NCBI GenBank assembly: GCA_965221695.1
Contig: OZ244905.1
Span: 160,001 to 224,000 of the forward strand
DNA length: 64,000 nucleotides
Reading direction: 5' to 3'
Origin: Gammaproteobacteria bacterium
Lineage (GTDB): Bacteria; Pseudomonadota; Gammaproteobacteria; Eutrophobiales; Eutrophobiaceae
Within the stretch, counting starts at the first letter, position 1. Each line of letters opens with the position of its first letter. Positions 57,244 through 58,282 of the stretch are shown here, in pieces. The notes below the pieces were generated by a model. That model was not told where the DNA came from. It worked only from the letters and a program-made list of their open reading frames with translations, and made no database searches. The position numbers and the translations under genes were made by a program.

Positions 57244-58002
57244 AGACTATGACCGATTGTAGTTACGTAAATAAACCTGGCTATATGCTGGAAACTCCGG
57301 TGTATCCTCCAGTACTCGTCTCAATTTGAGGCAGTGACAATCTGTGAGGTGCGGACAATCAGCAGGAAAGATTCCTAAATTGGAGAAGGTAAATGGCAAT
57401 TGATATCAAACAGGTTCCGGAGCGAATCGGCTACTACTTGGCAGGATTCGCAGATGGAGAAGGGAGCTTTAATGTATCATTTCGTAAACGTAAGGACTAC
57501 GCGATGCCTTGGAAGGTATCACTTTGTTTTAATGTGTCACAACGAGATAAAGTAATACTCACTTTGTTCAAGAAGCATCTCAAATGTGGGACATTACGTA
57601 GTAGAACAGATGGAGTCTGGTATTACGAAGTGAATAATATCAATGCTATTGATGAAAATGTGATTCCCTTTTTTAACAGATTTGGATTTTTGTCTGCTAA
57701 GAAAAAAAGAGATTTCTCTAAATTCAAGCAGTTAGCAAAAATAATTAAGGAAGGCAAGCACTTGAATAAAACAGGTATCCACACCATTATTGATATCCGA
57801 AAGGAGATGAACGATGGAGGTGTTGGAAAACGTAAGTATTCCGACGAAGCGATACTAAAATTCTTCAATTGAAGAAAATCCTCAGAGACTATACGCCAGG
57901 CAGTACTTGTTGCTGAAGATATAGTCCGATCTGTATAGCAATATACAGGGGTTATTTTCAATAATCCGCAATGTGAATGTATCAAACATTGTTAACACAA
58001 TG
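57244..58002 (+). mobile_element. Group I intron at 23S position 1917, carrying a homing endonuclease gene
   Basis: Exon U before the site; P1 GTAACTAT/GTAGTTAC with U.G pair; core TGCTGG, AATCAGCAGG, TCAGAGACTA, AAGATATAGTCC; terminal G 58002. Confidence 0.93.
57393..57872 (+). CDS. Single-motif LAGLIDADG homing endonuclease
   Basis: YLAGFADGEGSF, FNVSQ, VIPFF, KKRDF; RBS GGAG; inserted in the P6 loop of the intron. Confidence 0.93.
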   Translation: MAIDIKQVPERIGYYLAGFADGEGSFNVSFRKRKDYAMPWKVSLCFNVSQRDKVILTLFKKHLKCGTLRSRTDGVWYYEVNNINAIDENVIPFFNRFGFLSAKKKRDFSKFKQLAKIIKEGKHLNKTGIHTIIDIRKEMNDGGVGKRKYSDEAILKFFN

Positions 58003-58016
58003 AACGGTCCTAAGGT

Positions 58017-58282
58017 AGGAAGCGCTGCCTTAGTAAAATCCGACTAATTGCTGGAAAATCCGAGCATCCTCCAGTACTCGTCATGTCAATGACAGTAACA
58101 ATCTGTGAGGTGCGGACAATCAGCAGGAAAGACTGACAAATAGTTGTCAGAATCCTCAGAGACTACACGCCGGACATCTGTATTCTGCAGATGAAGATAT
58201 AGTCCCATCTGCAAGGCGACTTGCAGGGATAGTCAGTAAACTATCCGCCTAATCATTCCTTCATATATTAGGTAAGACATCG
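58017..58282 (+). mobile_element. ORF-less group I intron at 23S position 1931
   Basis: P1 CTAAGGT/GCCTTAG with U.G pair; CGCT can pair with 3' exon AGCG (P10); same core motifs as the first intron; terminal G 58282. Confidence 0.92.

Follow-up and report, generated by a model that had tools for sequence, protein, structure and literature searches.

Two group I introns of one family flank a 14-nt micro-exon in the only 23S rRNA gene of a gammaproteobacterium

[quoted passage not shown] C9 carries group I introns at L1917, L1931 and L2593 (Haugen et al. 2007, PMC1995217), and introns of the first two sites have been described as similar in appearance and IC1-like without P2 (Haugen et al., PMC1995217). 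Introns of both sites are also labelled IB4 (PMC11019260), a label used here as it stands in the literature. Where two introns stand in tandem, the described risks are exon skipping and folding of the pair into a single large ribozyme, and distinct P1/P10 elements suppress skipping (PMC10136302). Exon skipping has been seen by RT-PCR in Coxiella burnetii (Raghavan et al. 2007, as described in PMC10136302).

We have analysed a stretch of 64,000 nt from a gammaproteobacterium (the window), in which a 23S rRNA gene is interrupted at both L1917 and L1931. Synechococcus C9 has the identical two insertion sites and therefore the identical 14-nt exon. The window's pair is an already described layout (published 2007) that is frequent in environmental scans; it is probably not a fresh duplication.

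The interrupted 23S rRNA gene and its two introns

The gene and its parts are as follows.

55311-59255, + strand: 23S rRNA gene, twice interrupted (Rfam RF02541, 2770 bits)
57244-58002, + strand: intron 1, group I, 759 nt, terminal G, at L1917 (sequence, insert in the LSU alignment, L1917 relatives)
58003-58016, + strand: micro-exon AACGGTCCTAAGGT, 14 nt, E. coli 1918-1931 (sequence, pairing)
58017-58282, + strand: intron 2, group I, 266 nt, ORF-less, terminal G, at L1931 (Rfam RF00028, 88.9 bits)

The 5' exon terminates in ...GTAACTAT and intron 1 starts directly after it, at an exon end that we take to be E. coli U1917. On the sequence together with Rfam, the insertion points are exactly after U1917 for intron 1 and exactly after U1931 for intron 2. 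An earlier reading of the letters (the sequence-only reading) had described two group I introns of 759 and 266 nt with a 14-nt exon between them, and this is confirmed. The group I model that it proposed as a check (Rfam Intron_gpI) places intron 2 well above the gathering score of 50, the match (57969-58226) extending spuriously backward across the micro-exon and taking in the end of intron 1. For intron 1 itself, the 3' half scores 38.3 bits (E 6.3e-8), under the gathering score, because the core is split by a 505-nt ORF insert. Both halves of that core can be aligned to intron 2 and to the L1917 introns of six sister species in the genus. The introns lie side by side on either side of the 14-nt exon and neither interrupts the other, so a twintron was rejected.

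There is a single copy of the 23S gene and one rrn operon (blastn against the whole genome, which is one 3.54-Mb contig). The sequence-only reading had raised the question of whether both introns lie on one molecule. They do so in the single contig with its one operon, and independent contigs from two public runs bridge both introns and the micro-exon with 0 differences (run X1, 786 nt, 57342-58127; run X2, 245 nt, 57876-58120). These data, and the repetition of the layout in two sister genomes and at least 65 other loci, stand against an assembly artefact in which introns from different rrn copies or strains were joined. We found nothing in favour of such an artefact, run X3 hinting only at a variant elsewhere, and its probability is negligible.

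In run X3 intron 2 is covered and intron 1 is not. Absence of intron 1 is unprovable from contigs, and the pattern may reflect a variant without intron 1 elsewhere. A search for RNA runs of this organism found none. Joints over 57244-58283 in metatranscriptome X5 were rejected as splicing evidence, because their variant micro-exon letters point to intron-less 23S rRNA of other organisms.

The pairing elements at the splice sites are as follows.

57236-57243, + strand: final 8 nt of the 5' exon up to U1917, forming the exon side of P1 in intron 1 (pairs with 57259-57266)
57251-57266, + strand: internal guide of intron 1, P10 strand 57251-57258 and P1 strand 57259-57266 (pairing)
58023-58033, + strand: internal guide of intron 2, P10 strand 58023-58026 and P1 strand 58027-58033 (pairing)
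58283-58286, + strand: 4 nt at the start of the 3' exon, forming the exon side of P10 in intron 2 (pairing)

P1 of intron 1 has 8 bp, 7 of them Watson-Crick plus a terminal U.G (57236-57243 with 57259-57266), and P10 has 7 bp with one bulged A (58003-58009 with 57251-57258). P1 of intron 2 has 7 bp with a U.G at the end (58010-58016 with 58027-58033) and P10 has 4 bp (58283-58286 with 58023-58026). The two introns have in common a P1 with U.G at the splice site, a terminal G (omega G) and a P10. Both site-matched guides are as the sequence-only reading described them, and its statement that the micro-exon is fully used also holds, with 7 nt in P10 of intron 1 and 7 nt in P1 of intron 2. Cross-pairing of the intron 1 guide with the L1931 exon end was tried and fails. 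Intron 1 pairs with exon bases 1910-1917 (P1) and 1918-1924 (P10), intron 2 with 1925-1931 (P1) and 1932-1935 (P10). There is no overlap between these sets, which suggests that each intron could splice independently and in either order. On this pairing evidence each intron would be a complete ribozyme with its own guide, and both splicings together would rebuild helices 69-71.

The insert in intron 1 and the gene within it are as follows.

57372-57876, + strand: insert of 505 nt within the intron 1 P6 loop (pairwise alignment with flanking motifs)
57393-57872, + strand: gene for a predicted 159-aa single-motif LAGLIDADG homing endonuclease (ORF list, Pfam PF00961)

PF00961 matches the 159-aa protein in one stretch, residues 16-114 (E 4.9e-19, 69.5 bits against a cut-off of 23.1). 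With a single LAGLIDADG_1 domain, the protein is of a length that fits a homodimer subunit, and its relatives of solved structure are LAGLIDADG meganucleases (best E 1.4e-32). Comparison with two sister species gives a dN/dS of 0.052 at a dS of 0.89, which shows purifying selection on the predicted endonuclease gene.

At the equivalent position intron 2 has an 18-nt hairpin (58133-58150, from pairwise alignment), and the ORF list has no ORF of at least 40 aa on the + strand of this intron. Across 36 aligned L1931 introns that lack an ORF, 30/50 predicted pairs show compensatory changes. P3 of intron 2 contains an A.C mismatch that is the sole case among the 36.

Recurrence of the pair and relatives of the two cores

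In the comparisons below, G000 denotes rows of the window's genome, G015, G004, G008, G001 and G014 are sister species, and L-numbers are other loci. The sister species G015 and G004 have the same pair, with 88% identity over 1034 of 1039 nt, and G008, G001 and G014, of the same genus, have the L1917 + L1951 layout known from Coxiella burnetii. A second intron at L1917 is found, among the matches listed, in 15/98 L1931-bearing genome loci and 50/84 metagenome loci; both scans were pattern-defined, the metagenome scan by a motif of the window's own L1931 lineage, so these frequencies are not population estimates. In all, the genome and metagenome scans give the twin L1917 + L1931 layout in at least 65 other loci, and the L1931 junction pattern and the L1931-lineage motif have at least 120 matches each, from many phyla. 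The sequence-only reading had taken L1917 and L1931 to be occupied singly and in few bacteria. This is wrong, because twin loci are frequent in the scans and the pair has been published (PMC1995217). A class-level census of the L1917 junction gave 6/401 genomes including the window's, a result too small and too close to chance to be of use, the reversed control giving 2 matches.

DotH/IcmK was found in none of 25 genomes of the host's family, and three class-level relatives match (E 1e-88 to 1e-92). This argues against a Dot/Icm-bearing lineage. Nothing relevant on Legionella rRNA introns was found among the papers listed.

Blastn of intron 1 against intron 2 gives 82% identity over 102 nt (E 1.8e-20) and 80% over 61 nt (E 6.7e-7), far above chance. 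Whole-intron MAFFT misaligned the two across the ORF and was replaced by a flank-anchored alignment with profile-defined blocks. Without the ORF insert, intron 1 is identical to intron 2 at 171/242 aligned positions, and the two cores are 78.2% identical. Cores of the L1917/L1931 family are about 70-85% alike irrespective of site. Core profiles match 22/22 L1917 introns and, of the L1931 introns, 90/103 in block A and 65/103 in block B (among the matches listed), and 0/3 L1951 introns of the same genus. Comparison at the sequence level thus supports the view that the two introns are homologous, with one core type, in one broad family, and the likeness of the pair is probably mostly due to this shared family.

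Among the matches listed, the rows nearest to intron 1 are the L1917 introns of L226, L179 and L182 (87-89%) and those nearest to intron 2 are the L1931 introns of L182, L208, L172 and L178 (86-87%), so that L182 holds nearest outside relatives of both introns in one locus. The co-resident partner ranks only 55/216 in core identity seen from L1931 and 100/216 seen from L1917, and G000_L1917 has a median identity of 73% to the other 50 L1931 introns, the best being 82.7% (L040, an acidobacterial MAG), again among the matches listed. Both introns combine an exact L1917 or L1931 insertion with nearest relatives at the same site. The trees, built on 175 columns, have a backbone largely without resolution. 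In them G000_L1931 falls with L182_L1931 and the L1931 introns of the two sister species (starred clade, 97/90), and G000_L1917 within a clade of 17 rows (92/90), all of them L1917. Trees and AU tests run block by block gave no resolution of the branching.

The sequence-only reading had proposed that one ribozyme moved 14 nt here, making the two introns special siblings, and had named grouping of each core with its own site family as the result that would speak against it. Such grouping is largely what the trees and ranks give, and the proposal is unsupported. Because each intron is closer to same-site introns and the pair recurs elsewhere, a recent jump of 14 nt in this lineage is unlikely. 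Recently duplicated siblings are likewise not supported as a candidate, since the partner is not the nearest relative of either intron and a clade uniting the six rows of the genus is disfavoured in the AU test (p 0.237; in a second run p 0.079, with the constrained tree worse by 40 lnL units), although with p above 0.05.

That reading had also pointed to long identical runs. There are four, each occurring exactly once per intron and nowhere else in the window: run 1 (17 nt; 57304-57320 and 58066-58082), run 2 (35 nt; 57337-57371 and 58098-58132), run 3 (57877-57891 and 58151-58165) and run 4 (57914-57927 and 58192-58205). The first two lie in these stretches.

57304-57371, + strand: P5/P4/P6 stretch of intron 1 with the 17- and 35-nt runs (exact match)
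58066-58132, + strand: P5/P4/P6 stretch of intron 2 with the 17- and 35-nt runs (exact match)

Exact copies of run 3 occur in 46/65 outside L1917 introns and 93/193 outside L1931 introns, and of run 4 in 3/65 and 96/193, respectively (among the matches listed). Run 1, in contrast, is exact in 2/65 and 3/193 and run 2 in 1/65 and 2/193, on the same basis. The possibility that the shared runs are ordinary conservation, which the sequence-only reading itself had allowed for, is therefore borne out for runs 3 and 4 and is less likely for runs 1 and 2, which are rare elsewhere. The 17- and 35-nt runs in P4-P6 are the unusual part of the pair.

These two runs, and the finding that an identical run of at least 35 nt occurs in only 1/2230 non-co-resident L1917 x L1931 pairs (among the matches listed), favour a true sibling relationship of greater age. 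The ribozyme would have been copied 14 nt away, through duplication or reverse splicing, in an ancestor of the genus's intron-bearing species and L182, its guide would have re-evolved and the copies would have diverged. Consistent with this, the six-row clade survives the AU test, and the pairs of G015, G004 and L182 are 84.5-85.6% identical in block A, where G015 ranks 1st/51. Additionally, in runs 1, 2 and 4 the L1931 introns of the genus are closer to the co-resident HEG-type L1917 introns than these are to the ORF-less L1917 introns of sister species. However, in the best trees the companions of each intron come from other hosts and occupy the same site, in the two clades given above, and the constrained tree is the worse by the 40 lnL units. 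The 3' half of intron 2 (P7-P8-P9.0) is 95% identical to the L1931 introns of L208 and L172 but 73% identical to intron 1 (rank 160/216 among the matches listed), and its P8 and P9 are clearly L1931-type. We consider such an ancestral copy improbable.

Exchange between neighbours and distribution of the endonuclease gene

The sequence-only reading had offered exchange of sequence between the two introns as another possibility. In other twin loci homogenisation is clear. The 5' half (P3-P6) is at least 90% identical in 6/64 co-resident pairs, from six mutually unrelated loci, against 4/10,376 non-co-resident pairs, and the 3' half never reaches 90% in the same comparisons (all among the matches listed). 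In the six loci 5' halves that are 94-97% identical stand beside 3' halves that are 64-75% identical. For the window's own pair this part of the proposal does not stand in the same way, because its block A identity is 82.3%, whereas unrelated pairs have their 99th percentile at 86.1%. Its P5/P4/P6 sub-block, chosen post hoc after the runs had been seen, is 94.8% identical, a level reached by 58/10,286 non-co-resident and 9/64 co-resident pairs among the matches listed. Conversion in the window's genome is thus suggested by the post hoc sub-block only. We read the surplus of identity in P4-P6 as the result of earlier gene conversion, which would have carried a tract from one site lineage to the other.

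The same figures bear on pure family conservation, by which the introns were acquired separately and exchanged nothing, and the 17- and 35-nt runs are a P4-P6 variant common to sub-lineages that happen to meet here. Exact copies of the 35-nt run occur in L182_L1917, L179_L1931 and L220_L1931, five other introns have the 17-nt run unchanged, and G000_L1917 is 100% identical in the sub-block to L179_L1931, which is at another locus. Whole-core identity is unexceptional (percentile 0.68, with the partner ranks given above, among the matches listed) and block A, as stated, is under the 99th percentile. However, for one P4-P6 variant to be found in both site families, at least one transfer between site lineages must have taken place somewhere, and the excess of co-resident pairs at the sub-block level and the six unrelated loci with their contrasting halves speak against this explanation. 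We regard it as unlikely, if well short of negligible.

Among the matches listed, a long ORF is present in L1917 only in 18 and in L1931 only in 32 of 65 twin loci, and in both introns in 0/65 (Fisher p 3e-7, with kin that are not independent). An intron counted as HEG-bearing here if it was at least 550 nt long with an ATG ORF of at least 120 codons, which is a criterion of size and not of Pfam domain. In the published twins of Synechococcus C9 and the Navicula plastid, both introns encode an endonuclease (PMC1995217, PMC11019260), and one gene per pair is therefore no rule.

Taken together, the data probably reflect an old and widespread two-intron cassette of one family, with no recent jump, an earlier conversion in P4-P6 and an ORF-less neighbour that is co-mobile. 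In this cassette the group I intron at L1917 would contribute the LAGLIDADG gene, and the one at L1931 would have no ORF. Its single endonuclease would cut intron-less L1917 sites. As L1931 is only 14 bp away, too short a distance to serve as a separate homology arm, repair would copy both introns, and the ORF-less L1931 intron would ride along by co-conversion.

A more general version of the cassette can be put forward tentatively. L1917 + L1931 would be a composite mobile element with a single endonuclease gene in either intron and a gene-less partner that is co-converted; the 5' halves would be repeatedly homogenised by gene conversion, the 3' halves would stay site-specific, and the 17- and 35-nt runs would be an eroded trace of this process. 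A bolder corollary is that the LAGLIDADG protein might assist the folding of both introns, with selection for a common P4-P6 surface.

Meaning and comparison with known systems

By itself the result for the window is of modest importance, adding one more bacterium whose only 23S rRNA needs two ribozymes to rebuild helices 69-71. The family-level patterns (at most one endonuclease gene per pair; 5' halves homogenised and 3' halves distinct) are more interesting than the window itself. If they hold in an unbiased census, the pair would be a natural model for the persistence of an ORF-less intron by means of its neighbour's endonuclease, for the avoidance of exon skipping by tandem ribozymes and for recombination that shuffles ribozyme domains.

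In CPR bacteria, as in the window, LAGLIDADG_1 genes are found in 23S insertions at 1917, 1931, 1952, 2593 and other positions, and they are widespread in uncultured bacteria (PMC11270868). In the available portion of that survey we found no mention of a paired L1917 + L1931 cassette, of a one-gene pattern or of exchange between neighbours (PMC11270868).

Coxiella burnetii resembles the window in that its 23S gene, present in one copy, has a very short exon enclosed by two group I introns (PMC10136302). Its introns, however, are at L1917 and L1951, belong to subgroups IB2 and IA3 and flank a 34-nt exon, whereas the window's are of one family and flank 14 nt (PMC10136302). Related ribozymes on both sides of a short exon are also known from orf142 of phage Twort and from engineered Tetrahymena tandems (PMC10136302). 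The guides of the window's introns are fully distinct, as with the P1/P10 elements that suppress skipping in the Twort and Tetrahymena work (PMC10136302). Those systems concern a protein-coding phage gene or a reporter and near-identical introns, in contrast with an essential rRNA and cores that are 78% alike and known from sequence (PMC10136302).

The plastid rrl of Navicula vanseea has introns at 1917 and 1931 with the same subgroup label, IB4 (PMC11019260). Unlike the window, it belongs to a plastid genome and encodes LAGLIDADG proteins in both introns (PMC11019260). Synechococcus C9 is like the window in having both sites occupied in one bacterial 23S gene, single-motif LAGLIDADG genes and an L1917 ORF that begins in P6 (PMC1995217). 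There the L1917 ORF extends into the core, whereas the window's lies wholly inside the P6 loop (PMC1995217). The window's host differs from Synechococcus C9 in being a gammaproteobacterium with one rrn operon. Finally, all introns of Synechococcus C9 contain an endonuclease gene, whereas in the window L1917 alone has one and L1931 is a 266-nt ORF-less ribozyme (PMC1995217).

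The rrn operon and the layout of the two introns

The window contains a complete bacterial rrn operon (Rfam), in which the 23S match is 3945 nt long against 2925 model positions. Alignment to the LSU model shows that the surplus 23S length is made up of two inserts, both in the region of helices 69-71. The features are as follows; tRNA genes in the spacer are ordinary in bacterial rrn operons.

52643-54189, 16S rRNA (Rfam)
54288-54361 and 54516-54588, two tRNA genes in the 16S-23S spacer (Rfam)
55311-59255, 23S rRNA (Rfam)
last base 57243, end of the 5' exon, ...GTAACTAT (sequence reading)
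57244-58002, intron 1, 759 nt, final base G (sequence reading)
57393-57872, LAGLIDADG_1 ORF, 159 codons, one domain, E 4.9e-19, within the 57372-57876 insert (ORF list, Pfam)
58003-58016, micro-exon AACGGTCCTAAGGT (sequence reading)
58017-58282, intron 2, 266 nt, final base G (sequence reading)
from 58283, start of the 3' exon, AGCGAAATTCC (sequence reading)
59339-59453, 5S rRNA (Rfam)

We take the insertion sites to be U1917 and U1931 (E. coli numbering). Intron 2 is a full group I intron, with an Rfam score of 88.9 bits (gathering score, 50). Intron 1 reaches only 38.3 bits against the same gathering score because its core is split by a 505-nt insert (57372-57876), which in the pairwise alignment occupies the place of the 18-nt P6 hairpin of intron 2. 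The two-intron feature is real and the sequence-only reading described it accurately. Elsewhere in the window, an ALIL pseudoknot at 28162-28278 (RF01497, 102 bits), an IS3-type frameshift signal, suggests the presence of an IS element.

The assembly consists of one 3.54-Mb contig, in which a genome-wide search found the 16S, every 23S exon and both introns once apiece. Contigs from the public sequencing runs X1 (786 nt) and X2 (245 nt) span intron 1, the micro-exon and intron 2 with zero differences. With one rrn copy and bridging contigs from two independent runs, both introns lie on one molecule. A 324-nt contig from a third run, X3, comprises the micro-exon, intron 2 and 3' exon (58003-58312) with zero differences; its first 14 letters map elsewhere and X3 depth across intron 1 is zero. 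This contig is possibly a variant with intron 2 alone.

The P1 helix of intron 1 has 8 bp with a terminal U.G and its P10 has 7 bp with one bulged A, while intron 2 has a 7 bp P1 with a terminal U.G and a 4 bp P10. When these pairings are drawn the micro-exon is fully used, as had been proposed: bases 1-7 pair with intron 1 and the last seven with intron 2. We tried both guides against the exon end of the other intron and found that neither cross-pairing is possible. The four helices fall on non-overlapping exon bases, so neither intron requires prior removal of the other, and this arrangement suggests that the two could splice independently. In P3 of intron 2 the window genome has an A at 58043 opposite a C at 58170; in the remaining 35 ORF-less L1931 introns of the alignment this pair is G-C (columns 97/343).

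Relatedness of the two cores and exchange between neighbours

Without the ORF insert, intron 1 matches intron 2 at 171 of 242 aligned positions. Core profiles were made from the genus alignment for block A (P3-P6, 98 columns) and block B (P6'-P9.0, 78 columns); they match every L1917 and most L1931 introns and none of three L1951 introns. In a joint alignment of 217 rows, L1917 and L1931 introns are typically 70-85% identical, and the window pair is 78.2% identical (block A, 82.3%; block B, 73.0%). Among the matches listed, intron 1 is 55th of 216 rows by nearness to intron 2, and the nearest outside the genus are the L1931 introns of loci L182, L208, L172 and L178 (86-87%). Likewise, among the matches listed, intron 2 is 100th of 216 rows by nearness to intron 1, whose nearest outside the genus are the L1917 introns of L226, L179 and L182 (87-89%).

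A tree of 101 rows (for each query the 45 closest rows, with the partners of these, plus the rows of the genus and five distant ones) places intron 2 in a starred clade (97/90) with the L182 L1931 intron and those of the sister species, and intron 1 in a 17-row clade (92/90) that is entirely L1917. A 75-row tree agrees. Forcing the six genus rows together was 14.7 lnL worse (AU p 0.237) and, in a second test, 40.2 lnL worse (p 0.079); the joint clade with the L182 pair added gave an AU p of 0.046, for a grouping named after the tree was inspected. A joint clade of the six genus rows is disfavoured, though not firmly rejected. The likeness of the window pair, which had been read as that of siblings, is on these ranks and same-site clades mostly ordinary family likeness.

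That claim had drawn on four identical runs, and all four are exact in both introns. Among the matches listed, run 3 is exact in 46/65 outside L1917 and 93/193 outside L1931 introns, and run 4 in 3/65 and 96/193, respectively; these runs are ordinary. Runs 1 and 2 are rare (2/65 and 3/193 for run 1, 1/65 and 2/193 for run 2, among the matches listed); they span P5, the P4 3' strand and the beginning of P6. P5 covaries freely across the family, yet is identical between introns 1 and 2. A common run of at least 35 nt occurs in one of 2230 non-co-resident pairs (genome set, among the matches listed). In a 58-column sub-block, picked after the runs were seen, the window pair is 94.8% identical, a level reached by 58/10,286 unrelated and 9/64 co-resident pairs among the matches listed. 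The L179 L1931 intron is 100% identical to intron 1 in this sub-block, and L1931 introns of other loci have the same variant. This indicates a P4-P6 variant that some members of both site lineages have in common, rather than one private to this genome. Taken together, the data give a modest hint that the window pair may carry an old exchanged P4-P6 tract.

Across 64 twin loci (23S loci with both introns), among the matches listed, the two cores of a locus show slightly higher identity than random pairs in block A only (78.9% vs 74.5%, median percentile 0.79), with no excess in block B (74.4% vs 74.3%). Six loci without close kinship to one another (L228, L229, L240, L230, L070 and L179) combine 5' halves (P3-P6) that are 94-97% identical with 3' halves that are 64-75% identical, a mosaic pattern resembling gene conversion between the neighbouring introns. 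Block A identity of at least 90% is found in 6/64 co-resident and 4/10,376 other pairs, among the matches listed; the window pair, at 82.3%, lies outside this class. The suggestion that the two introns exchange sequence thus holds at family level; for the window pair the indication is weak.

The endonuclease gene

The intron 1 ORF matches solved LAGLIDADG meganucleases, and purifying selection on it is strong (dN/dS 0.052, with dS 0.89, against G015 and G004, genomes of two other species of the genus). It belongs to a highly conserved family with a wide distribution: 4088 of 4111 candidates are relatives with E no greater than 0.001, and the best 120 of the 4088 are all 74-100% identical, many of them on contigs of a few kb.

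We scored 65 twin loci from pattern-defined samples (among L014-L264, matches listed) by intron length and ORF. Among these matches, a long ORF is present in L1917 only in 18, in L1931 only in 32 and in neither intron in 8; in a further 7 the L1931 intron is long but lacks an ORF, and none of the 65 has long ORFs in both introns. The Fisher p of 3e-7 for this pattern is overstated because kin, which are not independent, are included. L1931 introns standing alone carry a long ORF in 53/83 cases (genome set, among the matches listed). Twins with two endonuclease genes have been published (PMC1995217, PMC11019260), so at most one gene per pair is a tendency, seen in biased samples, and not a law. 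The tendency is consistent with a scheme in which repair of a break at one site would copy the two introns together, because a 14-bp stretch is probably too short for a separate homology arm.

Twin introns in other bacteria

Within the genus (23 genomes), G015 and G004 have the same L1917 + L1931 pair at 88% identity. Three other genomes (G008, G001 and G014) have a different L1917 intron (~350 nt, ORF-less) and an L1951 intron (~744 nt, with a 157-160-aa endonuclease ORF), which flank a 34-nt exon. G009 has an L1917 intron only, and the 16 other genomes of the set gave no match. Two kinds of twin thus occur within one genus. In a separate search, DotH/IcmK was found in 0/25 genomes of the host's family and in three class-level relatives.

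A genome scan with the pattern 'G + start of 3' exon' (one genome per prokaryote species) gave at least 120 loci. Among the matches listed, 98 contain the two exon anchors together with an L1931 intron, and in 15 of these L1917 is also occupied. A metagenome scan with the P7 motif of the window's L1931 lineage likewise gave at least 120 loci; L1917 is also occupied in 50 of the 84 with both anchors, among the matches listed. These counts show that the L1917 + L1931 pair is common.

The layout of G008, G001 and G014 is that described for Coxiella burnetii (L1917 + L1951). The L1917 + L1931 pair itself has been published for Synechococcus sp. C9 (PMC1995217) and for a diatom plastid (PMC11019260).
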